A DNA stretch of 55,677 nucleotides, counting the filler, from Basidiobolus ranarum (lineage: Eukaryota): assembly GCA_040143965.1 (NCBI GenBank). It is 5 parts of 5 records of this genome, joined end to end, with 100 filler letters (N's around TTAATTAATTAA, not from the genome) between each part and the next. Parts side by side here need not be neighbours in the genome. Positions count along the whole stretch, not along the records: positions 11,177 to 22,236 come from JASJQH010000641.1; 4 more parts are not named here. One strand, 5' to 3'. How positions within the stretch are numbered: position 1 is the first letter of the stretch; each line of letters starts with the position of its first letter. The translations under genes and the position numbers were made by a program. Shown one piece after another: positions 3,345 through 52,664 of this stretch. The notes beneath the pieces were generated by a model that was not told where the DNA came from, made no database searches, and was given only the letters and a program-made list of their open reading frames with translations.

Positions 3345-5906
3345 TTAGGTTTGAGAACCGAAACACCTTTCTACTGATCTAGAGTCATTTCCCCACCAAT
3401 TTGGCATGGTTACGGTGCTGAAGGCACCAAAGAAAAGGAAAATGCATAATAATGCTAGATTATACCCTGTATCAGCGGCTGCTCCTACGAGGTAATTATA
3501 CTTGCGCCAGGTTTCATGGCGATACCGGAAGAAGTAGAACATACAAACGAAGCCACCGATAAATTGTGAGAATGGCCCCGTAGATACGTTTCCGTAGAAT
3601 ACCTCCATGTTTGAAGAAAAGATGGTCACATTCCATAAGTCAAATCTCCATTTGGGGAATTTCTTGTGTAAGAAGAAGATGATAAGAGGCGCAATTACTC
3701 CGAGTAAGAATCCCCACAAAAGAGGGGAGTAGACTGATAGTTGGAAAAGACGAGCAGGTCCTACCAAGCCATATTGAACTGCAGAGTTGTTATAACTAGT
3801 AGGGTTTTGGCCCGTCCATTGGTTAAGAGGATCTTTTTCAGAGCCATCCAGGTAAGAACGCTTAGTATCGACTACCCAACGAATAACCAAATAGTTGATT
3901 GGAATTCCTATAATGTTTCCCCATAGTTGGGAAAAGAAAGTTGCCCGTGGAGGAATGTGCATGTAATGTCCGATCTTTTGATCTTGCAAGATTGTTTGTG
4001 CTCTGTACCAGCATTGACCCGCAACGATACGATAGACTAGTGACCCAATTGGATGGGTTCCTGGTGCAAGGTAACCATAAATTAACTCATTAAAGGTACC
4101 AACTGCAACTTGGTAATTACTGATCGCATAAATGTATCCCATAGGAATCACCGCAGCCCCACCAAGTACAATGGCAACAAGATAAGTCCACCTGTTGAAA
4201 TTCATTCATTAGCGCTCAGCTAGGGAAAAAATTAACATGATCTAACTTACCATGGGAGATACAAATCTTGAGTAAGTATAAGTATGGTCATAGTAGCGAA
4301 ACAGCACAAGAACAGAACCCCATACCACCTATATAATATGGTATGCGTTAGTTAAAATCTACACCTCACAGATTGGGGTAACATCCAAATTACCAAGTAG
4401 GAACTTCGGGATAAGCTGCCATCAATTTGTTGAGCTTATCTGGCTCTGCACGCTTTTCGCGCTTGTAAACGCGCTTGAAGGTTTTCAACAATTTTGGTCC
4501 AGCGAATAAACCAATATACATAAAGGCGGAGATGAATGTGCAATAACCAAAGAAAATAGTCCTAAAGAGCCGGTAATATTTAGTAAACGGAGGGTGGGAA
4601 TTTCACTTGAATACTGTAGCATACCAGAGATTATATGATCCCATATACACTGGCCCATATTCAGCATACGCAGTTTCATTGAATTTTAAGTCTGAAGTGA
4701 TCAACTTCTGGAAGGGGTACTTGCTACCTTCACCAGTAAACAATTTGTTGGACATGATGGGGAAATCGCGTCCTCCCCATAGGTTTCCAAAGTAAGACAT
4801 AGGCACCAAAATCCATACATTGAGCACGAAAGCAGCAAAGATGGTGACTTGCGTCCACCATGGGTAAAGCATGATTGAGCTGGTGATATTAGACCAATCA
4901 AGAGTGAAATTCAAAACACCCATTCCACCAAGTCCTGACCCCACAAACGCGACAGTATCGTTGTAAGGTGCGATCCAGCATAGGACAGCCAAACTAGAAG
5001 TAAATGGGAAAATATACTCTGGGAAGAATTCCCAAACAAATACTCCAGCCAGGACGAACCAAAAGATTTTCATTTGCTTTCTTGATGAAGCGTCAAACAC
5101 ACCATCACTACGCAGAGTCCTGTACAAAGTAGTTTGCATTAAAGCAGAGGGCCAAATAAGATCGGGGTCATAAATAAGGAAGTTTCTTGCTAAGGCAGCA
5201 AAGGAATAACCAGTCCAAATAGTAGATATCATGAGTGCTAAACAGAACAAGAATGTGAGTGTTTTGCAGAATTAAGAAAGAAGAAGGTTTCTTATTAGAG
5301 TACCAATGGCTCCCAAAGGGTGCATCTGTTCATGATAAAATAAATCCTTGACAGAAACAATAATCTCTCGCAAATTTGAGGTAGCGCCGGAACTAGCACT
5401 GAGGGTGATAAGTACATGCTCTTTGATCGAAAAAGGACCAGGGTTAAGATTGAATTTGAAGCCAAAGATATTGATTTCTTTGGCAGGAAGCACATCATGT
5501 AACCAACGTCCTGCCCAGTGAGTACAAATCTGGACAAAAAATAAGGAGTACGGCGCAGTGGTAGTTCGGAACCAACTCAGTTGTGACACAAAAGCACCAA
5601 GTCCTACGAAAATGAATGAAAGAAGAAAGTATCTATAGATTGAGGAATTAGTATGCTTCGACTATACAAGCAATCACTATCGAGGTACCTAAATGTCAGA
5701 GTGGGCAAAGTTGGATCGTCCTCCATCGAAACAATCTCTTTGACAATATCCGGAATCCCATCCAACTCGGGGTCTTTTTCATCAGCAGATGAAATCTTTT
5801 CTTCTGTCTTCAAAATCTCCTCGTAATCGATCTTACTTGGACTTTTTTCCGTAGATATAACATCCTTCTCTTTGGTATCCGAAGCCACTGGTTCTTGAGT
5901 CGCCAT
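3345..5906 (-). CDS. OPT-family oligopeptide transporter (multi-exon)
   Basis: Exons carry OPT motifs: EDDPTLPTLTFR, LNPGPFSIKEHVLIT, LIWPSALMQTTLYRTL, GLGGMGVLNFTLDWS, DQKIGHYMHIPPR, WRKYNYLVGAAAD, MPNWWGN. They are separated by short GT-AG introns. Confidence 0.95.
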
Positions 5907-9470: not shown

Positions 9471-10412
9471 TCGTCGAAAGTTGCCACCTTTTTTATCTTA
9501 TTTCATTGTACCAATTTGCGTATACAATCTGCATTCATCAACCACTTGATATTTCACTTCACCCCGCTTCCCTGGTCCTCAGTATATTTATGCTTGATAC
9601 TAAGGCTAAGAAAAGCGGATAATTCAATAAATTGAAAATTTTTGGTACAGACATCATCCAAGTAGAAAGTTGCCTCGATATTGGACTAGTGATCGAACAG
9701 TATCTCATCAAGCTTATTCTTGCCATCTATTACGGGTAGCAATGGTCATAATATAATCAGGATTTATGATATGATTGATTTTCATGTGATCTTGAGTTCT
9801 ATTTTCCAATTTCATTTCCTAGAAAATCATGGTGGATCCCATACTTACGATGAAGTATAGAATGGGTATATGAGGGAACTTGGAATTTATGATGATTTCC
9901 CCATCCGTCTTTATCGTGGTTGGAGTAAGCATTTCCGTGAAGTACCTACTGAGATATGCTCTGCTGACACCCAATCTAGTCAACCTTTATGGAGGTTACT
10001 CTCTGTGTAGAGTGGCCTCAATTTTTGGAAGCCACGAAAGTGGCTATAAATCTTAAATCAAATCAATACCTTATTCTATCATAACAACCTTAGGGCGTAG
10101 GCGTTTGCATTTCTTAAGTGTACACATGGTAAGGCAGGCTTGTCCATTTGGGGGTTAGCGGTTAGTAGATCATATAACGTTCTTTTATTGAAATAAATAG
10201 CGAAATCTATATGTATACATACAAAATGAATGGTAACTGATTCGTGTATTCTTGAGACTTGGATGAAAATCAAAAACTTATATATGGCTTTAAACAAAAA
10301 GAAAAGTAACGATAAAAGGTACAATTGAAGAGGAAGATAAGAATTTAATCCTAAATGAAAAGGATAATATGTTTTTTTGTGAAGGATGTAGATAATGGTA
10401 GTAATATTATTA

Positions 10413-11076
10413 TTAGCTTTGGAGATGTAAACTACTTAGCGCGGTTCCTTTGGCTACTTCGGACATAACTTTCGTAAGATTCTCTTTATGGCATGGCTTG
10501 GTTAAACACATGTCCATTCCTGCAGCTAAGCATTCTTCTTTGGTTTTTGATTGCGCATCGGCAGTGAGTGCGACAACCGGAATCCTACGTGGTAGAAGAT
10601 TTTCTTGTTCAAAATTACGAATTCGGCGAGTGGCTTCATATCCATCACATAAGGGCATCATCTTATCCATAAAAATGCACGCGAATCCATTCGGTTTATC
10701 CTTATAAGCATCTACTACTTCTAAACCATTGTTGGTTACTGTCACGTCATAACCCATTTTCTCGAGCATACGTGTGATCAAGCGTTGCGCTACAAGGTTA
10801 TCTTCTGCTACCAACACATGCATCCCCTTACTGCCTTTTTCATTAGCAGCTCCGTTCTTGGATTTACTACCTTTATCGGAGAGGGAGAGTTTGGCTTTTT
10901 TCCGTGGTGTATGGTTTGAACTGACCGAAGTAGCGGTAGTGGTGGTGGCAATGGCGACAGTCGGCAGCGAAAGGGGAATACTGAGTTGTGTAGATACAGT
11001 GGATGGTTCTTCGACAAAGCCATTATCAAACATCTCCACGACACTCTGAAGTAGCAGTATTCTTCTGACTGGTTTT
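10413..11076 (-). CDS. C-terminus of a hybrid histidine kinase / response regulator (receiver domain), cut by the contig end
   Basis: Receiver-domain motifs VLVAEDNLVAQRL, IFMDKMMPLCDGYEAT, IPVVALTA and CLAAGMDMCLTKP. Confidence 0.9.
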
Positions 11077-11176
11077 NNNNNNNNNNNNNNNNNNNNNNNN
11101 NNNNNNNNNNNNNNNNNNNNTTAATTAATTAANNNNNNNNNNNNNNNNNNNNNNNNNNNNNNNNNNNNNNNNNNNN
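11077..11176. other. Artificial contig linker
   Basis: 44 N + TTAATTAATTAA (stops in all six frames) + 44 N. Confidence 0.98.
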
Positions 11177-14100
11177 CAAAGATTGCAGAAAACGGGATTT
11201 TTGATGAAAAGCTAAAGTTGGAACCAGCAAATGAAGTCAGCACTATTGGGGATCATCTATTGGTGTCTGCTCTATCAGTAACCACTAAGCAAGACTCAGA
11301 AAAGTGGTTTATTGATTCAAGTGCCTCTTAGCCTATGCCAAATAAGATAAAATTGGTTTTCTAGCTTAAAACATATCCAAATCAGGAAAGTCTACTTAGA
11401 TGATGACTATCCACTAGATGCAGTTTGTTTGGCTTAGCAGCTGGGATCAAAATGCAAAACTAATACAAGCTAAAAACAACAAATTGCATTCTGAGCATTC
11501 AGACTTGGCCAAATCTGATGTAGCAACCTGTCAAATTTGGCATAAAAGATCAGGCAATATTGGGGATCAAAAACTGATGAAAATGATTCAAAATATGCTG
11601 CTTTTGGGCTTAAAAATCAAACATGTCACCAAATGGAATCTGTGTGAAGGTTGCTTTTATGTAAATCATCACAGAGAGCCTTTTTAAAGCCTTGACGGGA
11701 GCAAGTCCACTCAAAACTTTGCCCTGATTCATTCTGACCTATGTGGACCCAATCATATGGCTCACTAAGTGATCAAAGGAACTCTATGACCTTGATTGAT
11801 GACAAAACAAGATATACTTGAGTATTTTTTCTCAAATCAGAATATGAAGCCTTAGCTGCATTCAAGCTGTACAGAGCAAAGATGGAGAAAGAATTACCAC
11901 AAAAAATATGGGTACTAATTAGTGAAAATGGTAGTGAATTCTGCTCTAAAGACTTTGACATTTTTGTTCTAAATATGGACTTAAGCAACAAACTATTGTA
12001 CCTTCTACTCCACAGAAAAATGAAGCTGAAGAATGTGCTAATAGAATCATAGTGGAGATGGCAAGATCAATGTTACATGATCAAAAGATAGTTTACCAAT
12101 ATTTGGCTCAATCTGTCTCCACTGCTGTCCTTATTACCAACAGATGTCTAACAAGATTGATACAAGGTTCTATTCCATTTGAAGCCCCATGTGGATCAAA
12201 ACACAGTGTGGATCATCCCCGGATCTTTGGTTGCAAAGCATATTGCCCAATTTCAGGTCAAAAATGCTCTAAACTGTATCCTCAAAGCCAAATTGCATAT
12301 TTCTTGGCTACAGACTGTTTGACACCACAACTGAGAGGTTAGCCAAGAGCAGAGATGTGATTTTTGATGAAAAAGCTTATTGCTATCTCAAATTACACTT
12401 CTTGATGCAAAAAACACAATCAGCACTATTCAAGAATTATCCAACAAATTTCCAGCTCTATCCAAGCCAAATTTAACCAACTCTGGCCCCAATTACACCC
12501 ATGGATAAATGAGAACCTAGATGATCACCCAGACAGAGAAATGAGCCAGGCTGCTGGTGGAATACTTCCAATGATGATGTCTATGATGATGCAACATTCA
12601 ATGATGAGCCAGAGACTTTAGATCAAGCTATGGATAAGCCATTAGATCATTCCAAGCATTCTTAGCCATCCATAACCTTGATAAACATCTAATGGATGTG
12701 AAATTGACTTCACAAATGGAATTCTAAAAGAAGAGATCTATGTGAAGCAACTGGAACAATTTATTGACCCATAACCACCTGGTATGGTCTGTATGCTGCA
12801 ATAATTGCTATATGGACTCAAGCAGGAGCCCAAGGGATGGTACAGTCAGATTGATACACATTTGGAATTATTGTAATTCCAAAAAGGTACAGCATATCAC
12901 AGTATATACATCAAGACTACAGCAAATTAGAACCGTATCTTGGCACTATTTGTGAATGGCTTGATTGTAGCCCTAAATGCTCTAGAAGCACTTAATTGGA
13001 TGAAAAGCAGCTTATCAATCCTATTACAGATGACAGATATGGGTGAGTCAAGGAATTTTCTTAGAAACCAAATCAAGAGAAATAAACCTATTAATTAATC
13101 AGGCTGAATAGGTTTGGATACATTCTAGGCACTCTAAAGTGATTTAGAATCAAGAATAGTAAGTCTGTATCAATGACAATGCATCTCAATGTGAAATAAA
13201 TTAAAATAGCATCCAATTTGTCCCAAATTGACCAAAACCAAAGCCAGGAGTTCCCTTATCAATTCATGGTGGGTAGCTTAATGTATACAATGGTTAAAAC
13301 ATCTTCACACATTGCTGTGGAAGTGGGAACTGTCAGCCATTATCTCAAAGATCCACCATGTGAGCACAAAACTGCAGTAAATTAAATATTCAGGTAGTTG
13401 AGAGAAACTGTGGATCTAGTTTTGGAATATTGTGACACTTGTGCTACACAAGTGTTTGAGGGCTACAGTCATGCAGACTGGAGAAGAAACCTTGGTGATG
13501 GAAGATCAACCACTAGGTACACCTTTCTCAATAGTAATGAAGCCTTAACTTAGATTAGTAAGGAGCAACTGACTGTGCCACTTTTAACTATCAAAGCAGA
13601 GCATATGGCTGCCACTGCTACTACAAAGAAAGCTACATGGTTCAAGAAGTTATTTTCAGACTTAAGATGCATGCAAAAATTTGCTCTGATGGTATTTGAA
13701 TAAAGTCCAAGTTGCGTTTCATAAGCTAAAAACCCTATATTTTGAGGTAGAACAAAACATAAATATCATTAGGCACCATTTGGTTAGATAATTAATAGAG
13801 AACAATATCATTACACTTGTCTATTGCCCTGTGGAAGAGAGTAGTGCTGACATCTTAACCACACCATGAGCCAAAAAATAATATGAATCATTAATATTTA
13901 AGTTCAGTTTAAGAGAACTACCAAAAAATTAGTTGAGTAGAAAGTTGGATTTAGGTAAATAGCACTTATTGCTTGGTAATTGGTTTATTCTTATTCTGTT
14001 TATTTAGCATTCATTCCTGCCACTCAAAAACATGTGTTTATTATCCTAATTGATACAAATATTAATTAGAACACTTTCACCACTCTTTACTACCTTCTCA

Positions 14101-14293
14101 AATCTTCTCTAAATCACCTCAAATTTTCACACATGCTTAACAAGCATTCTTATTATCATCTCAGCATGTTCGATAGTTGTATTTCATAGTAAACTATAAG
14201 CAGGACACATTCAAGGCCATAAAACCTAAGTGTCTAAATGCCAAATCCAATTCTTGCCCAAAACACTTCCAAATTCCCTAAACACTTTAATCA
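11177..14293 (+). mobile_element. Decayed Copia element (PR-IN-partly deleted RT-RNase H-PPT-3' LTR family A at ~13943-14293)
   Basis: Fragments WFIDSSAS, IHSDLCGP, TPQKNEAEECANRIIVEMARSMLHD, RIFGCKAY, YQFMVGSLMY, GYSHADW and SADILT in Copia domain order. A purine tract is followed by a ~350-bp LTR ending TTAATCA. Confidence 0.9.
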
Positions 14294-15057
14294 AATAATC
14301 TAGTTTTTCTTGTTTTGTCATCAATAAAAGTCATAAAGTGCCTTTTGCCACCTAGTGTGATGTTTTCATACATAACTCAGAATGCAACAAAGAAACATTC
14401 CAAGTGAGGTTTATCTCTCACAAGCTTGAAAAGAGCTATTGGTAATGTTTTCCATATATGCAACCATTATGCAGATCCAATTTGGAATATTCAAAGTATC
14501 TAAGCATGTAACTAGTGGATTGCTAATCATTTGGGTATGTTTTGTTTTCCAATATGGCCTAATCTTTAATGTTATTTATGTCTGCTTATTTCACTGGTTT
14601 TGGCCAGTTTGCTTGTTCAGAATGGAATTTGCTGAATGCTAGCTTGATATGCTTACAGTTTTGATCCTAGTAGTTAATTTAGTATCATTCTTATCTGCAA
14701 TAGAGCATCCAGCCTTGTAGAGCACAAACCAAGTCATTGAGCTGCTGGTTGGCTTACTGAGAGTAGATTTATGGTGATATTTGATTCACAGAGTACAGCA
14801 TGCTTTTTGCCAATGGTGTAGCTGCATTTTATCCTTGATTGAGCACAAGTGTGCACTGACCAACTGCATCTAGTGCACAGTAACTTACTAAATAGATCTT
14901 TCTTGTTTTGTTGGGTTTTAAGCTTGAAAACCAATCTTTCTTGTTTGACATATGCTGCAAAGCTTCTAAGATAATATATCACATTTCTGAGTCATCCTTT
15001 GTGGTTGCATATAGGAGAGACACAAGAAAATGATCTTGTTCAGTGCTTACTTGTCTA
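14294..15057 (-). mobile_element. Inverted Copia fragment (protease to integrase N-terminus)
   Basis: The reverse complement resembles 16210-17290. For example, off-frame YVKQERLVFKLKT matches YVKQERLVFQLKT at 16269-16538. Confidence 0.8.
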
Positions 15058-18000
15058 TATTGAAATCAGGTAAGTAGCAACTCATTATTTAGTAGTTAGT
15101 TTGTTCATATTCTGATTATTTAATACTCAATTCTGTCATTTAAAAACATGTGTTTATTGCTCTAATTGATAACAATATCAATTGGATCACTTTTATCCAT
15201 TTTCACAATTTTCTCAAGACTTCTCCAAATAACCAGAAGTTTTCACCCATGCTTAACAGGCATGTTTGTTATTATCTAAGCATGACCAATAGTTCTATTT
15301 CATAGTAATCTATAAACAGAACATATTCAATTCAACACAACTTAAGTTACTAATTCACACCTTCAAATCTTGTCCAAAACAGTTCTAAATCTCCTAAACA
15401 CTTTTATCAGGTCATAAGCCCCAAGCTTGCTATTAATGGAATGTCTACTAGTGTATTATCAATATTTTCACATGCACAAAGAAGTTAGATGGTAAAGACT
15501 TTGACCTTTGGATGTTAAACATGCAAATGGTGCTGGAAGACAAGGAGCTTTTGAGATTGTTACAGGAGAAGAGATAGAGCCAAGAGACCACCAGAAGCTA
15601 TCCTTGCCTTTCACAAGGAGCAGGGGAAAGCATTCTCTACACTTTGCCTACAACTTGGAGACTCTCTATTGAGACACATACATTCAGCTAAAAACAACTA
15701 AAATGCTTGAGAACCACTTAAGGGACTATATGAGACAAAAAGTCTGGCTAATAGGATATATCTTAGGTGAGAATTATTCTCAATTCAGATAAAAACTAAC
15801 AATTCTATACTTAATCATATTTATGGGATAAAACTAAGGCCAATCAGCTTTCATCCATTGGAGCACCCCTAAATGAAGATAACCTAGTCATGACACTACT
15901 TGGTAGCCTGCCAGACAAACTTGGGAGCCTTATAAATGCACTGGAATCAAGATCAGAGCCATTAACAATGGAATATATAGGTGCTAGGATTTTGAATGTG
16001 GAATTAAGGAGATCTAACTCTCAGCAAAATAATGCACAACAGGCCTTTTTTGGAGCTGTAACATGTCCAACAGGCTTCAATAATGGTGCTCCTAGTAGGA
16101 AATCAATCATCTGCAAGTATTGCAGGAAACCAGGCCTTCTTATCAAAAATTGTAGAAAAGGATTTTTGCTGAAAAGCTAAAGTTGGAATAAACAACTCAC
16201 AGAATCACTGATAGGGATCATCTATTTGTGTCTGCCCTATAAACAACCACCAATGAACACTCAGAAATGTGGTACACCAATTCTGGAGCTTCCCAGAATA
16301 TGTCAAACAAGAGAGATTGGTTTTCCAGCTTAAAACCTATCAAACAAAGAAATTCTACCTAGGTGATGACTATGCTCAAGATGAAGTTGATAAGGGTGCA
16401 GTTGTATTCAATTTAGACCAAAATTCATCTACACCATCTGCAAAATTGGATGATGCACTCTATGCACCAAATATAGCCTGGAATCTACTCTCAGTAAGCC
16501 AAGCAACACCTCAAGTACTAAATTTTGTGCTCAGCTAGGCTGGATGTGTTGAAATTAGGTAAATAACATCTCTTTTTTAGGTAGTTAGTTTGTTCATATT
16601 ATGATTATTTAGCACTCAATTCTGTCATTTAAAAATGTGTGTTTACAGCTCTAATGGACAAAAAATCAATTTGATCACTTTTACCAATTTTCACTATCTT
16701 CTCAAAACTTCTCCAAATCACCTCAAATTTTCACCCATGTTTAACAGGCATGTTTGTTATGATCCAAGCATGTCCAATAGTTCTATCTCAGAGTAAACTA
16801 CCAATAGGACATATTCAATTCAATAAAACTTTAGTGTCTAATTCACAAATCCAAATCTTGTTCAAAACAATTACAAATCCCCTAAACACTTTAATCAGGA
16901 TGCACTATCACAGATCTGAATATTACCAAATTAGCCACTGGGATCAAAATGCAAAACTTATTGAAGCTAGATATCAACAAGTTGCATTGTGAGCATGCAA
17001 CTGTAGCCAAAACCTGTGAAAAAAGCTGTCAATCATGGCATAGAAGATTAGGCCACGTTGGGGAGTAAAAATGGACCCCAATGATCTGAAATCAGCATGT
17101 TTCATGATTATAAATTGAGAATATCTCCAAATTGGATCAATGCAAGGTTCTCTATGTGAAACATCACAGACTGCAGTTTTCAAGCTCTGTAGAGATCAAA
17201 TCCACTTGGATTTTGGCTTGATTCATTCAGATCTATGTGAGCCCGTGCAAAACAACTCACTAGATGGGAAAAGGTAATTTATGAACTCTATTGATGACAA
17301 GATGGGATATTATGAAGCATTCCCAAGCAATGGTAGAGAAAGAATCAGCACAAACAATAAGGGTACTAAGGAGTGATAATGGTGGAGGACACCACTCTAA
17401 AGACTTTATTAGTTTTTGTTCTAAACATGGAATTAAGCAACAAACTACTGTATCTTATACTCCACAGCAAAATGGAGTTGCAGAATGTGCTAATATGACC
17501 AAAGTGGAGATAGCAAGATGAATGCTACATGATCAAAAGCTAGACTACCAATATCAAGCTGCATCTGCCTCCACTGCAGTCTATATTAAAGACAAATGCC
17601 TAAAAAGATTGCTACAAACTTCTACTCCATTTGAAGTCCTATACACATCAAAATCAAGTGTGAATTATCTCTGGATCTTTGGTTGCACTGCCTATTGCCT
17701 AATTGCAGCTCAAAACTGCAATATTGGAATCCAAAAGCAGAAAATGCATATTTCTTGATTATTGCAGTGAATCTAAGGCCTATAGACTGTTTGATACCAA
17801 AAATTAGAAGTTAATTAAGTGCAGAGATGGGATTGTTGATGAGAAAGCAAATTTTTCAACTCAAATCACAATACCCGTGCCAGAAAACACAATCAGGACT
17901 ATTCTGGAAGTGTCTGACAGAATTCCAGCTGTATCTGAGCCCTATTCAATCAAAATTTTAGTCTCAATTACATCAGAGAATGATTCAGGGCCTAAAAGAT

Positions 18001-18642
18001 CATAAAGAAGGAGAAATAAGCTGGGAAACTATTGGAACATTTCCAACAATGATGCATGCTTATGTAGCATTCTGTGATGAGCCACAGACTTTGAATCAAG
18101 CTCTGGAGTGTTCAGAACAAAAGTCATGGGAAAAAGCAATGTTTGATGAGCTTTTTTCACTTCAGGAAAATAAAACATTGGTTCAGGGAGAAAGCCAACA
18201 GGTTGCAAATGTGTCTACAAGGACAAAACTCAGTTGATAGAATCATAGAAAGGTAAAAAGCAAGATTAGTTGCCAAAGGTTATTTCCAGACTCCAAGAGT
18301 TGATATCAATTCAAACTTTGCTGTAGTGGCCAAGTTTAGCTCCAGTATATCAATCCTGGCACTCTCAGTCATCTGTAACCTTGATTTACATCAAGTGGAT
18401 GTAAAAACAGCCTGTCTGAATGGATATCTAGAAGAAGAAATCTATATGGAGCAACCAGATGGATTTGTTGACTCAAAACACCCTGATATGATCTGTAAAG
18501 TGCAAAAATTGCTATATGGACTCAAGCAAGCACACAGTGCATGGTGAAACAATGTAGATACCTATATGGACAGCAGATCACAATATCTACATCAAAACAA
18601 CTCTTGTCCAAGACACTTCCAAATCTCCTAAACACTTTCATC
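15058..18642 (+). mobile_element. Decayed Copia element: 5' LTR-A (15058-15409), PBS, gag, PR, IN, partial RT, ending in an LTR 3' fragment
   Basis: The LTR ends TTTTATCA followed by GGTCATAAGCCC. Motifs include CKYCRKPGLLIKNC, VLRSDNGG...YTPQQNGVAE and LHQVDVKTACLNGYLEEEIYMEQPDGF...LYGLKQA. Confidence 0.92.
16547..16897 (+). repeat. Nested solo LTR (family A) with 5-bp TSD GGATG
   Basis: Reads GGATG|TGTTGAAATTAGG...TTAATCA|GGATG. The uninterrupted site GCTGGATGCACTA is present in another copy near 49108. Confidence 0.92.
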
Positions 18643-18867
18643 AGTTTGGCTAGTTCCTGCTTTAGCTTTTTAACCAAATATTTCTTACAAAAAGATTTGA
18701 CTAGATGACCTGGTTTCTTGCAATATATGCAGATGAATGATTTCCTATTAGTGGCATCATTGTTGAAGCCTGTTTGATGTTTAACAGCTCCAAAAGATGC
18801 CCAATCTGCATTATTCATTCACAAGCCTGGTTCAGAGCAATAAGCACATGTTTGTGAATGGCAGAAT

Positions 18868-19149
18868 TATTGAAATTATTTAGGGAAAAATATTGGTCTG
18901 GCCATGATTTAAACCTAGGACCTCCTTCACTCTAGCAAGGTGCTCTAACCACTGAGTTACCAGTCCTTGTATTCTATGCCTATATAACTAGGGAACCTTA
19001 ACCTAGTCTGTCAATGTATGGTACTTTGGCATTTCAGCCATACAAGCAACTGATTGGCCTTGGACTTTGTGTTCAGATGCAATCACCATACACTGTATTT
19101 TCCTCTTTGGGAATTACTGCTTGTACCACAAGTCTCTAGACTTTCAACA
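18868..19149 (-). mobile_element. 282-bp solo-LTR-like insertion carrying a tRNA-like cassette, 5-bp TSD AGAAT
   Basis: Reads AGAAT|TATTGAAA...TTTCAACA|AGAAT, with 7/8-matching inverted termini. Removing it rejoins the LTR-A sequence (GCACTCTATTCT-GCCATTCACAAACATGTG on the minus strand). Confidence 0.85.
18894..18966 (-). tRNA. Degenerate tRNA-like sequence (73 nt, nominal anticodon AGA) inside the LTR-like element; probably not a functional tRNA
   Basis: GGACTGG TA ACTC AGTGGTTA GAGC A CCTTG CTAGAGT GAAGG AGGTC CTAGG TTTAAAT CATGG CCAGACC A folds as a cloverleaf with about one mismatch per stem. It has an A box and a decayed B box, and is followed by TTTTT. Confidence 0.7.
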
Positions 19150-19239
19150 AGAATAGAGTGCAAAATAATTGAATTTGAATAAACTAACTGCTAAAAAATG
19201 TGCTGCTATTTACCTAATTTTCAACAATCTCTTCAACAT

Positions 19240-19830
19240 GATCAGCTGATTCTTGACTGTGTTACAGGTGAGCCATCAGGGGACTTGCAAGATACTTTTG
19301 GTAACTGATGGCCATATTGTGTAATACACAGAATGTTTCAATGCCTTTCAAAAAGTGCCAAAATCTTAAACAAAATTGGCTTCCAAGCAAAAGGCTGCTG
19401 GCAGGAATGGAAAAAACCAGCAAAAACAGAAACCTCAGTTGATGAGCAGTCTAGTGTTTCACTCTCCACTTTGGAAGGCATGAACATGCTTGTAACTACC
19501 TCAAGTAACAATAAAACATTATTGAATTGACCAGATGTCTTCCTTTATGGCAACAGTACAATTGACTAGGCTGCAATTGCCCAATTACATAATATATAAC
19601 AATTGAGTAAAGCATTACAGAAAAATAGTCAAGACCAATAACTTCAAAAACGCTTAATTTGCCCACTGTCAAAGACCCCTCTGTGTGTAATTCAGACAAA
19701 GTTATTACAACAATGCAATTTCAGGCAGAATACCACAATATTTTGTATGTTATTAAAAGTAACAACAGAAAGGTGCTCCATTGGCTGGGTAAACAATATC
19801 ACAATTAATGCAGCATTCTGAAGCTACTAG
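19240..19830 (+). repeat. Unclassified dispersed repeat with decayed coding potential (copy 1)
   Basis: Colinear similarity to the reverse complement of 54430-55075, with shared blocks such as CAAGCAAAAG, TCCACTTTGGAAGGCAT, AGTTATTACAACAA and CAATTAATGCAG. Confidence 0.7.
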
Positions 19831-20869
19831 TCAACAGTTAGAGAGTCACTGAACAATGATAAAAGAACTTGAGAATGCTGCACTTGAGCCACAGTGACAT
19901 GCTGCACCCTCCATCTATTCTCATACAGGACTCCAATGAATCCCACACCATACATTTAAACAACACTATGATAATCTAACAGAGCAGAATATGTGTTAGT
20001 AGGGGGCATGTATCTAGAAATCTTATAGGAAACCAGCAACCCAAGGATCTTGAATGTTAGAGCTGATGTTACTTGCTCTGCTCATAAATGGTTTGACATT
20101 TTGGAAACTGCATAGAATTGTGACCCGAATTACCTGGATTTGAGCAGATTGTGGAAAAACCAAAGACCAAACATTACTTAGAAGATTCTTAACTTATTTC
20201 TTGTGTCTTATCCTGGTTATTGCATGCAAATAGCAAAAGAGCTAGTGTAGGCCTCTTCAAGATACAGCTCATAAGTGTATGCAATTATTGACTTGGAAAA
20301 GAAAGAAACCCAGCCAAAGTCTTACTCAAGGAGCAGGAAGCTTGTAAGCCCCGTGGAAGAGCAAATAAACCAGTAATATAGGCGCTATTGTTCCACTTTT
20401 TTTGGGAGCTCACTAAGTCCCTCTTATATCCCATGGGTTTACTTCTTTCTTACTATTATGATACTGTTTTAGCTTCTTTTCTTTGTTTTCCTGGTCACTA
20501 ATACTTATTTTCCTAAGATATTCTATGGATAGGCATGTAGTTGCTCAATTACCTTGTGCTCAATAGAAACCGGGATATGCCATGAGTTAGAGGCTATAAC
20601 TATTATGAGTAATACCTGGCTTCAGGTTTTTGTGGGGCCTATTCATGTTGAAGTAAATTTAGGCAAGATTCCACCCAGCTTGCCAGATATTAAATCACTC
20701 ATCAGACTTGTTTGATTTGTTGGGTCAGATTGGGCCACCTGAAAAGTGTGCCAGCACCATTTGATGCAAATAGATTCTGGTCAGCACAATATTATATACC
20801 AATTCCAAAGTTGTTGTCTTACTTGGTTGACATACTCAGCATAGCTGCTGTTAGACATTATAGCCAATT

Positions 20870-21352
20870 CTAAACATGATTAAAGCTTAATTCATGGTGT
20901 TTTAAGTCAAGAGCTTTTAACGGATATTTTTGAGTAAGAAGACAATGAGAATTATTCAAGATTATGACTACTTTGCCCAACTTTGACTGGAAGCTACAAA
21001 ATGATCTTCCTCTATACTTTCCTGTTACAATGCTGAATCTCTTCAGGAAGCTAAAGCAATGCTCTACTCTTGCTCTAAAATTAGAAAGAATATCTTTATA
21101 AGGTTTTGCCTTTCTGTAAGTATTGCTCTGCTGGGCATCTTGTTAGCTTTGATACATCTTCACATTCTGCATTCTTCCCCTATATGTGCCAGATCTGCCA
21201 TAGTCTTCTCATGTTTCACAAATGGTGCATACAGCTTTACCAGAAGCCAGTTGTCAAGTGGTCTGCTTGATGGTGGCCCACCTTACAACACAATCTCTCC
21301 TTTTCAGTCTGTGACAGCATGTAACTCTATGCAATCAGTTTTCAATTGCCAG
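20870..21352 (-). pseudogene. PIF/Harbinger-IS5-like (DDE_Tnp_4) transposase C-terminal relic
   Basis: Minus-strand translation gives AVTD*KGEIVL*GGPPSSRPLDNWL...EKTMADLAHIG...KMPSRAILTERQ, a frameshift, then DILSNFRARVEHCFSFLKRFSIVTGKYRG. Its 5' part is cut by an LTR at 21353. Confidence 0.75.
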
Positions 21353-22236
21353 TGGTGAAATTAGGTAAATAGCAATTCATTATTTAGTTGTTAGTTTATA
21401 TATAATCTGATTATTTAGCGCTCAATTCTGCCTTTCCAAATTGTATTATCAATTAGATCACTTTTATCAATTTTCACTATTTTCTCAGAATTCTCCAAAA
21501 CACCTCAAATTCTCACCCATGCTTAACAGAACTGTTGGCTATGTTTTGAGCATGTCCCCTAGTCCTATTTCATAGTAAATTATTAATAGGATATAATCAA
21601 TTCAACAAAATGGAAGTTTCTAATTCACAGATACAATTATTGTCCAAAACATTTCCAAATCCTGTAAACACTCGTATCAGGTTATAAGCCCCAAGCTTGC
21701 TGTTAATGGAATGTCTACTAGTGCTATTATCAAAATTTTTGCATGCACAGAGAAGTTTAATGGTGAAGACTTTTACCTCTGGGAGTTTAAGATGCAAATG
21801 GTACTAGAAGAAAAGGACATTTGGGGATTTGTCACTGGAGAAGAAATAGAGCTAAAGGGAACACCAGAAGCTATCCTTGTTTCTCACAAGAAGCAGAGGA
21901 ATGCTCTCTCTACGATTTGTCTACATCTCAGAGACTCTCAGTTGAGGCACACATAATCAGCTAAAAATGTCCAAAATCCTTGGGAAACACTTGAGGGACA
22001 ATATGAGACTATAAGTCTGGCTAATAGGCTATATCTTAGGCAAAAATTATTCCCAATTCACAAGAGTTCTGATGACACTATGCTTAATCATAAAAATCAC
22101 ATCAAAACTGTGGCAGATCAGCTCTCATCCATTGGAGCACCTCTAAATGAACATGACTTAGCCCTGAAATTACTTAGGAGCCTGCCAGACAAGGTTGGAA
22201 AATTCATAATTGACCTACATTCAAGAGCAGAGCCAT
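21353..22236 (+). mobile_element. Copia 5' LTR-A (21353-21679), PBS and gag, cut by the contig end
   Basis: The LTR is followed by GGTTATAAGCCC and gag EKFNGEDFYLWEFKMQMVLEEKDIW. Confidence 0.9.
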
Positions 22237-22336
22237 NNNNNNNNNNNNNNNNNNNNNNNNNNNNNNNNNNNNNNNNNNNNTTAATTAATTAANNNNNNNN
22301 NNNNNNNNNNNNNNNNNNNNNNNNNNNNNNNNNNNN
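22237..22336. other. Artificial contig linker
   Basis: N44-TTAATTAATTAA-N44. Confidence 0.98.
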
Positions 22337-23150
22337 AACGGGATAGGCAAGTACAAAGTCTTTTCAACCATCCCACACTTATCCTCAGATTCGGTAAGGA
22401 AGTTGAGCCATTGACGTTCGATTTTGAACCTACCAGTTTCTGGCTTGCAATATGTAACGCACTCCTTTAGATGGCAACTCACGCTTTTAAAGGTGGCATC
22501 TTTGACTTCTGGGAAAAGTTTAATTGTCACTGGAATGATATCACCAAGACCAAAAGATCTAACGGGTAAAGAGATCTCATATGGAATGTTGTCATTCCAA
22601 ACATCATGTACATTTATCGGCTCCAAATGAGATACAGAACCAGGGAAAGAATAACGGATAATCTGAATTTCTTGACGGCATGTTGCCTTTCGTTTGGGAA
22701 AAGGCCTATCAGCAATAGCCTTTAGGATATATTGAACACTCCCATTTTTGACGTGAACTGTCTCAGGTAAAGAGCCTTCAAAAGGGATCTCAAAGCCAAA
22801 TTCGTGCTTACCCGGAGGAAGTACGTGAAGTTCAGTTTTAACAGGTAGAAGTGGTTTAACCATTTTGATAATCTCACGCTTTGCGTGACGTACATGGGTT
22901 TTACCGTCATAAGCTGATAAAAATATGTGAGTACTCTGTAATATATAACTAGATAGAAGTTGCTGTACTTACTGCATTTCCAAGACGCTTTAGCTTTACC
23001 GGTCAACTTCAACGATAGAGATTTGATTTTGGTTTCTTCGAGTATATAAATGACTACTTTCCCCTCCAATACCACACCACCGGACTCGCTCGGAGGACCG
23101 TGAAGGACTACTTGGTCTTCATAGGGTACTATCTCCATTCTAAAGGGCAT
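22337..23150 (-). CDS. Alpha-arrestin family protein (ART/CreD-like), 3' end cut by the contig end
   Basis: VVLHGPPSESGGVVLEGKVVI...KSLSLKLTGKAKASW, an intron, then LPPGKHEFGFEIPFEGSLPETV...VQYILKAIADRP. Confidence 0.88.
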
Positions 23151-25122
23151 ATTGCTGTTATTTGACTTGACTATAGGAGCAAATGTACTTCTTCCTATGT
23201 GTATAGCTCGCCTTTTAACCTAAAAAATGGTGAGTCGTATAGGTAAATTATATTATTGTATACATCTTAGAGGTTGTAATTTCTCCTTTTGAGGAATGGC
23301 ACCATTATTGGGGGTAAACTACAGACCAAGACTACAATTTTGAGTAACAATACTAAAGTACAAATCTCAGAGGTGATTATCTTCGCAATACCTAAATAAT
23401 CCTGGTGTTAAGTATATAGGCCAATTGAGATAGTGCCTTCAGTCCATCAGCTTCCTAGATAATCACAACCGTTCAGATAATCAATTGATAAACTCATTTC
23501 TGTTTGTTGACTTGAGCTGTGTATATCGCGCACAAACGTGGTTTCTGCTATCCATATTAAGATTTGGGGCTTTAATTACGCTCCGGTACCATCCATTCAG
23601 TTGAACGTAATGATTTTATTTGTAGATACAACGTGAGTCAAATTTGATTGTGCTTTATCAACATCACATCCCATCTTCATCTTGGTTTTAAAATGATATC
23701 GACATTACAAAGTACCATATGAGGTTGAAAACCCCCCAGCGCCACCGAATCCTCACGGTATTCATTTATCGCTACCTGATATGTACTCTTGGCATGCTTG
23801 TCACTCGCCTTTTGTAGGGTTTTAATGAATGATTCTAAGGGAGTGAGGCACCCAAATGAAACTACGATGCCCGATTGTTACCTAAATTCGAGTTAACCAA
23901 GGACAATTTGACCTCAACCCCCTCGAACAAGTAGAATTGCCTTCAGTATTGGCTATTTTGAGTGCATGTCAAAAACTCTGTACAAAGAACCTTAATTCAT
24001 TAATAAATATTCCGAATCCATTGGGGTGGGTGAGTACTACTTATCCACAGAGTCTGACAAAGCCTGTATTTCGGCCTTTGTTTTTTGGCTTTACACCCCG
24101 ATAGCTAATTAATATCATTTATAAATAAATGACTAAATCCACACCATGGAGTATATTCTGATACAAGAGGAATACATATTGATATCTTAAATCATCTAAT
24201 TATAGCATAGTATCGCTACAAAGTAATGGCGCAAGCTCATGCTTCCAGCGAAGTCCTAGCCACCATTGTTAACACCTGTTATCATGATTGTGATTATTTA
24301 CGGATTGACATGTGAAATACAGTTATGTGCCATCTTTGATTATCATTTCCCAATCTACCATGGAGCTTGTGCAGTTTAAGTGTTTCAGCATGCTGAGCTT
24401 CCAATCAATGTGACCAACTTGGGATGACTTTAAGAATAAATTGAGATTTCTCAACAATGGATGGTTTATTTTGGCAACTTAATGGTCAAGCTTCAAAATA
24501 GTCACAATTTCTGAGAATTGAAATGGCACTACCATTTTCAGAAAGGCACCATCGTAATGGTCTGATTAATAGAAGCAAACCATGAGTGGATTTGTTCATT
24601 GCCAATTTGAGTATGAAGAAGGCTTGAGTGGTACATTTAACAGCTTCCATATACCAGAATCATCTATTGAAGAATACTTCCGTCATGAAAATCGACAAAA
24701 TGAATACGACAGGTTTGTTCGCGTTGTAAATTTGGCAACTTATTGTAGTTGATTAACTATCGAGATTGTAGATGCAATTGGCATAAAACCAGCTACCAGA
24801 CCAGTGTTCTTAGCAGAGAGTGTAAGTGTTTTCATTATTACAAGCGGGATGAAAGTACCCTTACTTAGAATCACAAATCTCTATGTTGTGTGCAATTAGT
24901 CGATATTTTAATTGCTTTTATTATGTACTGAATCAATACCAAAAATTGTATGAGGGTCATCCTGATTTTTTCTAAATTCAGTGAAGTATGGTTTTTTTTT
25001 CTTTTTTTTCCCTTTTTCTGAAGAGGTTATTTTTTTTCTTCGATTTGGTACACTTTGTAAGTTAGAGGAATATTTGTTGGACTCTATACCACTTGACATA
25101 GATTTTATAGATTGCATACATA

Positions 25123-27426
25123 ATGTCCAAAAAGAAGACACTGGCTAAACAATTTCACAACTCGCTCAACACACAAGTCGCTGAAGCTGTTGTAGCAAAG
25201 TTTGATAACGATGCGGACTTATTTGCTATCATTACCCAAGCTGTCGATCGTCACCGTCTTAGAGTATTCGATACACACACAGGCACATTGAAATCAGAGT
25301 TTTCTTCAGATTCTGAGCGAAAGTTCACGTGCATGTCCTGGGGAATTACTCAAATTGAAGGAGTTTTGAGCGAAACCAGTGTAAGCACTCGGAAATATTT
25401 GTGTGCCAATCTCGAGTCGCTTAATTTACTTTATATTGTAGGAGACTTCTGGTAGAAAAAAAAGAAGGGCCTCAAGAGTGCAAGCTGCCACTACTTCTAA
25501 GGTTGTTGCTCTTGGTCTTGAAAATGGTTCCATTATCCTCTATTCCATTTCACTTGGCTCCATTCAGAAAACACTGAGTGGTGCCCACACTCTACCTGTA
25601 CGCGACTTTATATTCAGTCAAGATGGTGACAAGGGTTATTCTTGTGCCCAAGATGGGTTCATCATCGAATGGGACTTGAAGGCTGGTTCAATTATTAGGT
25701 AGCAATGTTGAAGTAATGAAAATAGGCAAAGATACATTTAACTCAAAGTTATATTTTTAAATAGAAAATGGAAGAGCGATATCAAGGATATTCACACCAT
25801 CAGCTTAAGCCATAATGGATCGGTTCTTGCTGTTGCCGCCCATAGCATTGAGCTTTGGGACTTGGAGTCGCAGAAAGTTATCAAGGTTTGTTTTTCATAT
25901 TTCATTTTTTCAAGCTCATGCCTTTAACTTGTGATTGTTATATCCAGAAATTTACTGGTCACGCTAGTGTGATTACCAATTTGACTTTCTCTCCTAATGA
26001 CGAGATTTGTATATCTTGTGCTGAACACGACCGTTTTGTGAACTTGTGGGATTGTCGATTGGAGGAAGATAAGGTCAATCTAGCGGCTCTTACCTTAGAT
26101 GCTGATATCACTCAATTAGACATATCGAAAACCAACAACGTTTTGGCTTTATCAGAAGAGGGTGTAGTTGGAGTTTGGGAAAACCTTATTGGTTCTACTT
26201 CCTTGGGATCTAAACCATCTAAGAAGAAGAGATATACTACTCGTCCCTCAGATTCTACTATTAAAATTCTTTCTACTGCTGAAGAGTCCGTTGTTATTCC
26301 AATCTTAGTTGCAAAGTTCGTTTCCAAGGGAGAGTATGCCGAGGTCCTTGTTGCTCGTGGATCTACTTTGAAACCTTCATTTGAGAGAGTGGTATGATTT
26401 CTTTACGTAAAATATTTAGTGTTGCTGTTACAAACTAACATCATTTCCAGAGCTTCCGTGATGAAGAGAGTGGCAAGTTTTTAGCCGAAGTTCAAGTTCA
26501 TCGTGCACCCACCGGAGATCTTTTGTTGGATTCAAGCTCTATTGCCTCCGACAATTTGGTACGAGTTTACATACTTCAGTTTCTTATTTATTCTTTTTCT
26601 AATATTTGTTCACTTTAGAAAAATACACAAAAATCTTATGGAGATAGCGATATAGCCGTTCTTGGTGCCACCGACATGGCCCTCCCTGACCCATCTATCA
26701 ACAAGCGTACTGAGGTTTTTTCTTTTTCTTTTGTCTGTAGTAAAAAAACTGGTCATACTTACGTTAGCTAACTATTAGGAGCAAGAACCTACTATTGAAG
26801 AGAAATTGAAGGATCTAGTAGTTGCAGATACAGCCGACGGTGCCAACGCCGAGATTCCTGCTCAAAAAACTATTACTCCCAAGGCCAACTCCCTTGTACA
26901 TATCCTTGTTCAGGCTCTTCATAGTAACGATATCCAACTTCTAGAAGGTTGCTTAAATAACACTAATGCTGAGATCATCAACAATACCGTCAAACGTCTT
27001 CCTCCTACCTATATCATTCCTTTCCTTGCCCAAGTCATTCCAAGATTCCAAGCCAAGCCAAATCGTGGTAGCGCTCTTCTAAGATGGATTAAAGCTGTCC
27101 TCATCTACCACGCAGCCTATCTAATGACTGTAAATATTTTATTTGTACAACTGTTTGCTATTCTCCATTGTCTAACTCATTCAATTTCTAAGGTTCCCGA
27201 CTTGGTAAAGCATATTGGTACTTTCTATCAAACAGTGGACAATCGCATTGGTAGCTTCCAAAAATTGTTGAATCTTTCTAGCCGTTTAGATTTAGCTCAA
27301 TCTTCAATGAGTAATATTGAAAACGTTGTGGAGGAATTCGACAATGAGCCCACAAATGTGTATATCGAAGGTGAATCTGATGACGAGTATGCTAGTTTAT
27401 CTGGTGAAGATATGACTGATGATTAA
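25123..27426 (+). CDS. UTP5: U3 snoRNA-associated protein Utp5/WDR43 (WD40 + Utp12/Dip2 domain), multi-exon
   Basis: N-terminal WD40 exons (VALGLENGSIILYS, KFTGHASVITNLTFS) and a C-terminal Utp12 domain (SLVHILVQALHSNDIQLLEGCL...TVKRL...LLRWIKAVLIYHAAYLMT), ending in an acidic tail. Confidence 0.88.
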
Positions 27427-33394: not shown

Positions 33395-33494
33395 NNNNNN
33401 NNNNNNNNNNNNNNNNNNNNNNNNNNNNNNNNNNNNNNTTAATTAATTAANNNNNNNNNNNNNNNNNNNNNNNNNNNNNNNNNNNNNNNNNNNN
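33395..33494. other. Artificial contig linker
   Basis: N44-TTAATTAATTAA-N44. Confidence 0.98.
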
Positions 33495-43840: not shown

Positions 43841-44539
43841 CTAGTTTTTCTTAGTGAGTGGTCTGTACACACCGACGACAAGAGCGTGATCACGTTCATA
43901 AGGCTCTAAGGTCAACTGTTCTTGGGGCTTGATGCGCTCTTGTTGAAGCTTCTTGACTTCAGAAGCGAAGACCTTAGCAGCATCAACAGTAGAATCAATA
44001 CAGTTAGCCTTGATGGAGATAACGATGTGACCATCATTCTTCAAGAAATTGTGAGCATTCAAAGCAATAATTCTAGCTTGATCAGGTTGGGCAACATCAG
44101 CGAAGATAACATCGACCATACCGACAAACATACGATACTTGTGAGGATGACGAGCATCTTCAATGATAGGTACTACGTTAGTACGCTTCTTGGCCATGTT
44201 GATAAGTTCACGACCGGGACGGTGAGAGAACTCGACAGCATACACAACACCTTCAGGACCAACAATATCGGCAACATGGGAAACAGTAGTACCGGAGGCA
44301 CCACCGAGGTAGAGAACCTTCTTACCGGGAGCAATGTGAACATGATCAACACCACCTAAGATACCAGCAGCCAACTTGGAACGGAAAGGATTCCAGACAC
44401 GGTACTCAATTTTGGTGCCATCAGGACCTTCAACGGAGACTCTCTTTTCACCGTAGACAGCTTCACCGGGAACGAGATTCTTGGTAACGAGCAAATCTTC
44501 CTTACCACGGGCAACGAAGACACCCTCATGTCTATGGGG
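43841..44539 (-). CDS. NOP1: Fibrillarin, rRNA 2'-O-methyltransferase; 5' cut by the contig end
   Basis: [50 protein letters not shown] and LEPYERDHA. Confidence 0.98.
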
Positions 44540-44639
44540 NNNNNNNNNNNNNNNNNNNNNNNNNNNNNNNNNNNNNNNNNNNNTTAATTAATTAANNNNN
44601 NNNNNNNNNNNNNNNNNNNNNNNNNNNNNNNNNNNNNNN
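44540..44639. other. Artificial contig linker
   Basis: N44-TTAATTAATTAA-N44. Confidence 0.98.
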
Positions 44640-44847
44640 TTCACTATTTTCTCAAAACTTCTCCAAATCACCTCAAATTTTCACCCATGCTTAACAGGCA
44701 TGTTTGTTATGATCTAAGCACGTCCAATAGTCCTATTTCATAGTAAGCTATAAATAAGACATATTCAATTCAATAAAACTTAAGTGTCTAATTCACATAT
44801 CCAAATCTTGTCCAAAACACTTCCAAATCCCCTAAACACTTTTATCA
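44640..44847 (+). repeat. 3' portion of LTR family A
   Basis: Closely similar to ~16690-16897 and ends CACTTTTATCA. Confidence 0.9.
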
Positions 44848-44884
44848 AGATTTGTTTTTGATCTTCAGAATTGTATGTCTCTAA

Positions 44885-45500
44885 ATGTTTCTATTGGGAA
44901 GCAAAGATTTTACCATATTGGTGATCATTAAGAGACTTCCTTCATCTATGCACAAAGTTACAACAACCAATAACTTATCAACTCATAGATATGCAATTGC
45001 TTTTTCTAAACATCTTGATGGAGAAATGATGTATGTAGCTTTTAAATCTTCTGAAACTATAAATCACATGTTAACAGATATTCCTTTTGTCAAGAAAGTC
45101 CCCTTTGTTGGCCAATTTTTTGAAGGATTTGTACACTCTTGATTTTATAATATTGCAAAAGACATTCCACTTGGTGAATTTATTAAATTAATGGACACTA
45201 AAACAATTAAAAATATTGTATTTACCAGTCATTCACTAGGAGGAGCCATTGCTTCCAGTGTTGCTCTTCAGTTATTAGTATGGCCTAATATAAACAAAAA
45301 TTCTATTTGGATTTATACATTTGGGTCACCTCCAATTGGTGATATTGAATTTGGAAAATATTGTAAAATGCAATATTCTGATAACTTTACATCTTTTTAT
45401 AACAAGAGTGATGTTATTCCTTGCATTGCTAGAATTGCACTTAGTCTAAGTAAATCCATTTGCAACCAGCATAGCAGTTATTTGTATAATTATCAAGATG
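44885..45500 (+). pseudogene. Intronless class-3 lipase remnant
   Basis: One frame with a single stop: MYVAFKSSETINHMLTDI...VHS*FY...IVFTSHSLGGAIAS...IYTFGSPPIGD..F...NKSDVIPCI. These correspond to lipase_3 motifs VHxGF, GHSLGG, YTFGSP and DxVP. Confidence 0.85.
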
Positions 45501-45519
45501 GGTATATATTAAAAATTTT

Positions 45520-45757
45520 TTTGAAGAATGTCATTCTCAGACTCCAAGAGTTGATTTTTTTCAGACTGTTGCTTCAGCAGCTTAGATTAACTCCCTTAGA
45601 TCAATCCATGCAATCTCAGTTGTCCTTAACCTCACTTTGCATGAAGTGGATACAAAAAACACCTTACTGAGTTGAAATGTGTAAGAAGAGATTTATATGG
45701 AGCAACCTGATTAATATATTCATCCAAAAGAGCCAGATATGCTCTGAACACTGCAAA
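45520..45757 (+). mobile_element. Copia RT fragment
   Basis: Resembles 18270-18500 (CAGACTCCAAGAGTTGAT...GAAGAGATTTATATGGAGCAACC). Confidence 0.8.
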
Positions 45758-46810: not shown

Positions 46811-46979
46811 TGTAAATCTTTGAGGGTGATGGAAATTTTGGATTCTGTCACAGAAAATATGAAGATGGTGGGGGAGGTGTGAAAATTGCATTTATTGGCA
46901 ATTTGCTATATTAACTCAAGCAAGTGCCCAGAGCATGTACAACAAGATAGAGACTGTTGCATTCCTGATGCGCAATATT

Positions 46980-47957: not shown

Positions 47958-47962
47958 GAGAT

Positions 47963-52560: not shown

Positions 52561-52664
52561 TGGGTTTACTTCTTTTAGATGATCTTTTAGGACATGATAT
52601 GTCCTCTGATATTAGATAGGACAAACATATGGTTGAGTTAGGCTTAAAATATTAGATTGTGCTT

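Follow-up and report, generated by a model that had tools for sequence, protein, structure and literature searches.

The Locus and Its Copia Neighbourhood

The DNA analysed here, referred to as the window, is a stretch of 55,677 nucleotides (filler included) joined from five parts of the Basidiobolus ranarum genome assembly GCA_040143965.1. Its fungal genes include those for an OPT transporter, a Utp12/WD40 protein and a Kre9-like protein. For the OPT fragment, identity reaches 91% with a protein of Basidiobolus meristosporus, the next best matches being at about 70% (Mortierellomycota); for the Utp12 fragment, it amounts to 90% with a protein of B. ranarum, 74% with one of B. meristosporus and at most 46% with proteins from elsewhere. 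Both of the two genes compared thus identify the host as a species of Basidiobolus. The feature under study is an insert at 18868-19149, which lies within a nest formed by decayed Copia elements and sits inside an LTR of one of them.

The LTRs of this host family, called family A in the following, are about 354 bp long and read TGTTGAAATTAGG...CACTTT(A/T)ATCA, as exemplified by the copy at 16547-16899. Downstream of them follow the domains gag_pre-integrs, then rve and then RVT_2, which is the order of Copia elements, and by this predicted domain content family A is a Copia family. Searching the window with Rfam, we found no tRNA-like part in the family-A LTRs. Two fragments of the host LTR flank the insert, both on the minus strand. 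The fragment on the low-coordinate side (18834-18867) takes part in a BLAST alignment that runs contiguously over the junction to 16547-16652 and to five further copies, while that on the other side (19155-19226), recognised from the same kind of alignments, represents the 5' terminal part and extends to the LTR end, reading TGTTGAAA... on the minus strand.

Two side observations concern the organisation of family A. Three of its LTR copies lie in the same orientation between 13941 and 16901, 1116 and 1488 bp apart and with inverted internal fragments between them, forming a rearranged or tandem LTR array. After two of the family-A 5' LTRs, at 15414-15426 and 21684-21696, we noted the sequences GGTCATAAGCCCC and GGTTATAAGCCCC, which resemble a candidate PBS that would be complementary to the anticodon-loop region of the initiator tRNA-Met.

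The mobile-element nests of the window are strongly depleted in CpG, with observed/expected ratios of 0.16 and 0.11 in the two nests at 11000-24000 and 44000-55677, as compared to 0.62 and 0.72 in two genes (3345-5661 and 25852-27426). TpG/CpA is in excess in the nests and TpA is not, the TpA/ApT ratio being 0.79-0.82, and the insert itself contains no CpG at all. From base composition, such a nest-specific depletion is the pattern expected of CpG methylation confined to transposable elements, not of RIP. We rejected RIP as the cause of the decay because the TpA/ApT ratio and the TpG/CpA excess, judged against RIP index thresholds, fit CpG deamination.

A 282-bp Insertion within a Family-A LTR

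An initial annotation of this DNA had described a 282-bp insert with T(G/A) ends and an AGAAT duplication within a family-A LTR. Reading the sequence, we found at 18868-19149 a clean insertion of 282 bp, whose inverted ends measure 8 bp and which is bordered by a perfect 5-bp target site duplication with one AGAAT copy at 18863-18867 and the other at 19150-19154; the paralogs of family A hold a single copy at this place (CAGAAT-TGAGT), and the right-hand copy was also located by alignment to them. For an empty-site test, the insert and one AGAAT were deleted and the joined flanks were searched against the 55.7-kb window by BLAST. The joined flanks aligned gap-free over the junction to six family-A LTR copies with identities of 74-84% (53465-53571, 15163-15063, 16652-16547, 51462-51349, 21440-21358 and 14042-13932). 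These six gap-free empty-site paralogs identify a real insertion and rule out a chance pair of repeats, and the description of the insert in the initial annotation is borne out.

The ends of the insert are formed by two terminal inverted repeat arms, one at 18868-18875 reading TATTGAAA on the plus strand and the other at 19142-19149 reading TTTCAACA on the plus strand (minus strand TGTTGAAA), the latter evident both from reading the sequence and from a repeat search. The repeat search of the insert reported its ends as a 9-nt inverted repeat with 89% complementarity. On the minus strand, the insert accordingly reads TGTTGAAA...TTTCAATA, one end being TA where CA is expected, and this non-canonical TA end is the complement of the TA start of the first arm. 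In a comparison by eye, 10 of 11 positions were identical between the TATTGAAA end of the insert and the family-A LTR start TGTTGAAATTA, and the terminal 8-11 nt of the insert are common to the Copia LTR family A of the same window. Beyond these termini, no similarity between the insert and family A was detected in the window by blastn with a word size of 7 or by nhmmer with the --max option.

Short inverted ends of the TG/CA type together with a 5-bp target site duplication are hallmarks of an LTR-integrase product, and this class of product is supported for the insert. A repeat search detected no internal direct repeats within the 282 bp, which identifies them as a solo unit, not as a whole mini-element with two LTRs. 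For the same reason, a complete mini-TRIM contained in the 282 bp was rejected. We therefore annotate 18868-19149 as a 282-bp solo LTR, as had been proposed before, based on the empty-site paralogs and the inverted ends; it is assigned here to the minus strand, which is the strand of the tRNA-like segment described below, whereas the LTR's own strand may differ.

A Decayed tRNA-Derived Segment within the LTR

The minus strand of the insert contains, at 18894-18966, a 73-nt segment with a full-length match to the Rfam tRNA model RF00005. At 37.7 bits, the match exceeds the gathering score of 29; its E-values are 3.1e-6 in a search of 801 bp and 2.2e-4 in a search of the whole window, and it is the sole Rfam tRNA match in the 55.7 kb. 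With a relaxed threshold, ARAGORN called the segment as a 73-nt tRNA-Ser(aga) whose variable arm is short, i.e., with AGA in the anticodon loop of a class-I body. A genuine serine tRNA has a long variable arm, so the Ser AGA anticodon disagrees with the short-arm body in which it stands. Of the 21 stem pairs in the Rfam alignment, 4 are non-standard, including the 10:25 pair, and the segment presents neither an intact-stem cloverleaf nor an isotype agreeing with its anticodon, as a functional tRNA would. A fast-filter Rfam run over the whole window missed the segment.

Whether the tRNA resemblance might have arisen by chance in ordinary LTR sequence was judged from the same data. ARAGORN with default settings called no tRNA at the segment, and its minimum free energy (MFE) structure, with a z-score of only 0.35, does not form a cloverleaf and is equalled or surpassed in stability by 115 of 200 shuffled sequences, as would be seen with a chance resemblance. 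Against this stand the full-length covariance-model match, which lies 8.7 bits above the curated Rfam cut-off and keeps its E-value of 2.2e-4 when all of the window is searched, and the motifs of the D-loop and T-loop, which stand in register. We consider a chance origin hardly credible, and a true derivation of the segment from a tRNA is supported. The tRNA part is decayed.

Another origin considered for the segment was read-through into the primer, which would give an antisense tRNA copy directly after U5 and ending with CCA. It was rejected because the segment carries no added CCA and lies within the unit, at a distance of 26 nt from the end.

The position of the segment, at 184-256 of the 282-bp unit, also bears on the question of whether the insert represents an LTR in the first place. 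Being a short sequence without coding capacity, the insert shares its tRNA-like part with SINEs and its terminal inverted repeats with MITEs, and could accordingly be read as a tRNA-derived SINE or, with its inverted ends of 8 bp and its duplication of 5 bp, as a MITE. SINE2 elements, like the insert, are short non-coding mobile units with a tRNA-derived segment and remnants of box A and box B, but they have a 5' tRNA head, a LINE-like or A-rich tail and target site duplications of variable length from target-primed reverse transcription. The insert has an internal tRNA part near one end instead of a 5' head, no poly(A), simple-repeat or LINE-type tail, exact inverted ends of the TG/CA type, and a target site duplication of exactly 5 bp. 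A MITE is opposed by the inverted ends, which measure only 8-9 nt and share the TGTTGAAA terminus of the neighbouring Copia LTR family. Moreover, a 5-bp duplication is the norm for Copia and Gypsy elements and rare among the superfamilies of DNA transposons. Taking the insert for a SINE or a MITE is therefore very improbable, and these two readings, as well as primer read-through and chance resemblance, fit its anatomy poorly.

Pol III-like Motifs and Their Damage

The elements expected of a Pol III unit were all located around the tRNA-like segment. A motif search identified a box A-like sequence, TAACTCAGTGG, at 18949-18959 on the minus strand, in which A replaces the conserved G10, affecting the non-standard 10:25 pair, and a box B-like sequence, GGTTTAAATC, at 18906-18915 on the same strand, in which T replaces the conserved C of GGTTC (C56). 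A TATA-like sequence reading TTATATAG on the minus strand is present at 18980-18987, which places it at -21 to -14 relative to the start of the tRNA. A run of five T at 18886-18890 (minus strand) begins 4 nt past the tRNA-like 3' end and may represent a weak Pol III terminator. The TATA-like sequence upstream of the tRNA and the TTTTT near the end of the insert, both reported previously, were recovered at these places by reading the sequence. The term "complete cassette" used in the initial annotation is correct as far as all parts are present, but overstated because each box deviates at a base that is normally conserved; in form the cassette is complete, yet both predicted promoter boxes are damaged.

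The same annotation had regarded the state of box B as consistent with CpG decay. Loss of CpG is indeed strong and specific to the transposable elements of this window, and it can explain some of the damage seen in box B. We rejected decay of GGTTCGAATC to GGTTTAAATC as the full explanation because a change from CG to TA takes two substitutions, only the first of which is driven by CpG, and because the ancestral box B GGTTCGAATC is itself an assumed sequence.

On the minus strand, a 7-nt direct repeat, TTCCCTA, at 18881-18887 and 18989-18995 brackets the block of TATA-like sequence, tRNA-like segment and T5 run. It could be the footprint of the entry of a tRNA unit into an ancestral LTR, but a repeat of this length or longer was obtained in 1667 of 20,000 shuffles (8.3%), which is not significant. 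The repeat might be taken to mean that the tRNA piece is private to this single copy, having entered as a gene fragment, a tRNA cDNA or a small SINE after integration or in the immediate parent, in which case there would be no tRNA-bearing family. Insertion of a SINE2 into an LTR has been proposed by Kojima as the birth of elements of the kind discussed below (PMC10886601), and our inspection rests on one copy. Besides the insignificance of the repeat, this explanation is opposed by the lack of an A-rich or LINE-like tail and by the extent of the bracketed block, part of which lies upstream of any Pol III start and would be missing from an RNA-mediated copy. We regard a private tRNA piece as improbable. 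Because the target site duplication brackets all 282 bp and no significant repeat surrounds the tRNA part, the latter most simply travelled together with the LTR.

Comparison with Published LTR Elements Carrying Small-RNA Genes

The closest described kind of element is Helenus (TRIMp3), a group of TRIMs with tRNA-derived sequence in their LTRs (Kojima 2024, Biology 13:119, PMC10886601). They are small and non-autonomous, and the tRNA-derived sequence provides an internal Pol III promoter with boxes A and B. As defined there, a TRIM has two LTRs, a PBS and a PPT, a total length below 1000 bp and no coding capacity. In the main text and Table 1 of that paper, the fungal Helenus elements comprise 113 families in Pucciniales and further ones in Agaricus, Coprinopsis and Amylostereum; they produce 5-bp target site duplications, depend on Copia elements, with which they have PBS types in common, and frequently survive as solo LTRs between 5-bp duplications. 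The dominant primer type of the fungal Helenus elements and their Copia partners uses the anticodon loop of the initiator tRNA-Met, and an age of about 130 million years is proposed for the Helenus of Pucciniales (PMC10886601). Their tRNA parts mostly fail isotype checks, the predicted types including Ser-AGA, Thr-AGT and Sup-CTA, and inflate the tRNA gene counts of rust fungi (PMC10886601).

The insert resembles these elements in its tRNA-derived segment within an LTR, its 5-bp target site duplication, its association with Copia and its survival as a solo LTR. As in Helenus, its tRNA part is unlikely to work as a tRNA and shows disagreement between anticodon and body, and the Ser-AGA type called for it is among those published; its 282 bp fall between the quoted extremes of Helenus LTR lengths, 120 and 323 bp (PMC10886601). 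It differs in its host, since Basidiobolus belongs to an early-diverging lineage and the Helenus fungi named in the main text and Table 1 are Pucciniales and three Agaricomycetes. Furthermore, only a solo LTR is present here, without PBS, PPT or second LTR, and its likeness to Helenus is one of features. The conserved Helenus motifs, TRGCY..YGG for box A and GGTTC for box B (PMC10886601), are each altered once in the present copy, which reads TAACT...TGG and GGTTT; this compares a single copy with motifs from family consensus sequences. The missing G10 of box A and the missing C of GGTTC count against the assignment to Helenus, and so does the T5 run located 4 nt behind the tRNA part, which would stop some Pol III transcripts inside the 5' LTR.

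Two other groups follow the same principle of a Pol III promoter from a small-RNA gene within an LTR, namely Cassandra of plants, whose LTRs contain 5S rRNA sequence, and Ajax of nemerteans, with a 5S promoter fragment. Ajax also resembles the insert in its 5-bp target site duplications, and it is described as a 5S-derived TRIM group known from nemerteans only (PMC10886601). Both groups differ from the insert in being derived from 5S instead of tRNA and in their hosts, and an Rfam search of the whole window gave no 5S match at the insert. The initial annotation had named Ajax as tRNA-derived and Helenus as 5S-derived; according to the cited paper, the two names were exchanged. Its suggestion that the tRNA part might encode the element's own primer has published evidence against it in the case of Helenus, for which no complementarity between the tRNA-like part and the PBS was found (PMC10886601). 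The family-A Copia LTRs of the window agree with the insert in their terminal motif TGTTGAAA..., in the class of integration product and in their CpG-depleted state, but have a length of about 354 bp, lack a tRNA-like part and are followed by Copia coding remains.

Basidiobolus, Zoopagomycota, Mucoromycota and terms beginning with Entomophthor- are absent from the main text of the Helenus paper (PMC10886601), our literature searches listed no report of tRNA-bearing LTR elements in the Basidiobolus lineage, and a 2026 sugar beet paper, in the text available, merely cites Helenus. The earlier suggestion that the element may be undescribed in this lineage stands to that extent, but fungal TRIMs bearing tRNA sequence had already been described (PMC10886601); at most, the host lineage Basidiobolus would be new.

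Further Copies and Orientation of the LTR

Searching the 55.7-kb window by blastn (word size 7) and nhmmer (--max) yielded no second copy of the insert, the only match being that to itself; the next best blastn match had an E-value of 0.15 over 31 nt. Neither of two 21-mers taken from the insert had a match in JGI metagenome contigs, and one of the two likewise had none in viral contigs. This is weak evidence, as such scans detect exact matches only and these collections are unlikely to contain the fungus. The part of the LTR outside the tRNA-like segment (about 19002-19156) is covered by two open reading frames, one of 45 amino acids without any candidate in protein databases and one of 49 amino acids with two matches, both to unrelated repeat proteins.

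The orientation of the LTR is ambiguous from its sequence, as a solo LTR offers no PBS or PPT from which a direction could be read. The core of the TATA-like element is palindromic, the plus strand also reading TATATAA at 18981-18987, and therefore cannot settle the question. A comparison by eye of the two termini of the insert with family A gave 18 agreeing positions out of 22 for the plus orientation and 15 out of 22 for the minus orientation. With the plus strand as the sense strand of the element, the tRNA part would be antisense, located in U3 and unable to drive synthesis of the element RNA.

These data lead to the main rival of a Helenus-like origin, namely that the insert is a solo LTR from an autonomous Copia element of the ordinary kind, which relied on Pol II for its transcription and carried the tRNA segment as a passenger, maybe antisense in U3, with no role in transcription. 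"Not a few" LTRs in Repbase hold tRNA-like pieces, and only some of these are TRIMs (PMC10886601). A unit with neither a paired LTR nor a PBS or PPT might equally well derive from an autonomous Copia. The canonical-looking TATATAA on the plus strand, the slightly better fit of the termini in that orientation and the imperfection of both Pol III boxes would all agree with a passenger, as would a window full of remains of autonomous-type Copia elements. On the other hand, the insert has no similarity to the Copia LTRs of the window beyond the termini, its TATA-like sequence, full-length tRNA and T-run in a single orientation have the look of a captured Pol III unit, and its length is within the range quoted for Helenus LTRs. 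We consider an autonomous Copia origin rather unlikely, though it is the alternative most to be reckoned with.

Proposed Origin of the Insert

Our preferred explanation is that the insert is a solo LTR left by an LTR retrotransposon which a Copia-type integrase placed into an older family-A LTR, that the LTR already carried its tRNA part at that time, and that its closest described kind is Helenus/TRIMp3; we give this explanation about an even chance of being correct. Beyond the anatomy described above, we infer membership in a multi-copy family, a non-autonomous (TRIM) nature, transcription by Pol III and the sense orientation of the LTR. The insert may have been mobilised by the Copia elements of the window that have the same terminal motif. 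With regard to the initial annotation, the observation made there is confirmed, and its interpretation is partly supported.

Going by what Helenus and Cassandra suggest, the insert would descend from an element with box A and box B in its 5' LTR, to which TFIIIC and TFIIIB would bind. Pol III would then start just upstream of the tRNA-like part, read through the weak T5 run and a short interior containing the PBS and PPT, and stop in the 3' LTR. The resulting RNA would be packaged, copied and integrated in trans by Gag, reverse transcriptase and integrase of a Copia element, producing the 5-bp duplication. Recombination between the two LTRs would later have left the solo LTR at 18868-19149. 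The copy present today is an inert relic, as it has zero CpG and has lost a key base from each promoter box, and for a single decayed copy a present function is not evident.

That Basidiobolus, which as a fungus of zygomycete grade stands far from the rusts and mushrooms with known Helenus elements, harbours a Copia-dependent LTR family of its own, driven by a tRNA-derived Pol III promoter, is a more tentative proposal, for which we see somewhat less than an even chance. If it is true, TRIMp3 elements either arise repeatedly wherever Copia elements meet tRNA or SINE sequences, or predate by far, within fungi, the roughly 130 million years proposed for those of Pucciniales (PMC10886601), and such elements may also inflate tRNA gene predictions in the genomes of early-diverging fungi. 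If the insert were confirmed as a member of a family, the range of Helenus/TRIMp3 would reach beyond Basidiomycota into a fungal lineage that diverged early, which would bear on the choice between repeated birth and ancient origin of LTR elements with tRNA promoters. Relics like this one, which score above the Rfam tRNA cut-off, can enter counts of tRNA genes or pseudogenes by mistake, and this happened in rust fungi (PMC10886601).

Other Features of the Window

Two further features of the window were recorded. The sequence contains eight runs of exactly 44 N, arranged as four pairs about 11.15 kb apart (11077-11176, 22237-22336, 33395-33494 and 44540-44639), one of which adjoins a family-A LTR fragment at 44640; these pairs look like masking or scaffolding, not like biology. 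At 9904-10032 on the plus strand, we found a candidate U4atac snRNA of the minor spliceosome with a full-length match to RF00618 and an aligned Sm-site-like 3' end, AAUUUUUGG. Its score of 46.6 bits is below the gathering score of 53, with an E-value of 7.7e-7 in a search of 551 bp, and the candidate, if real, would point to U12-type splicing in Basidiobolus ranarum.
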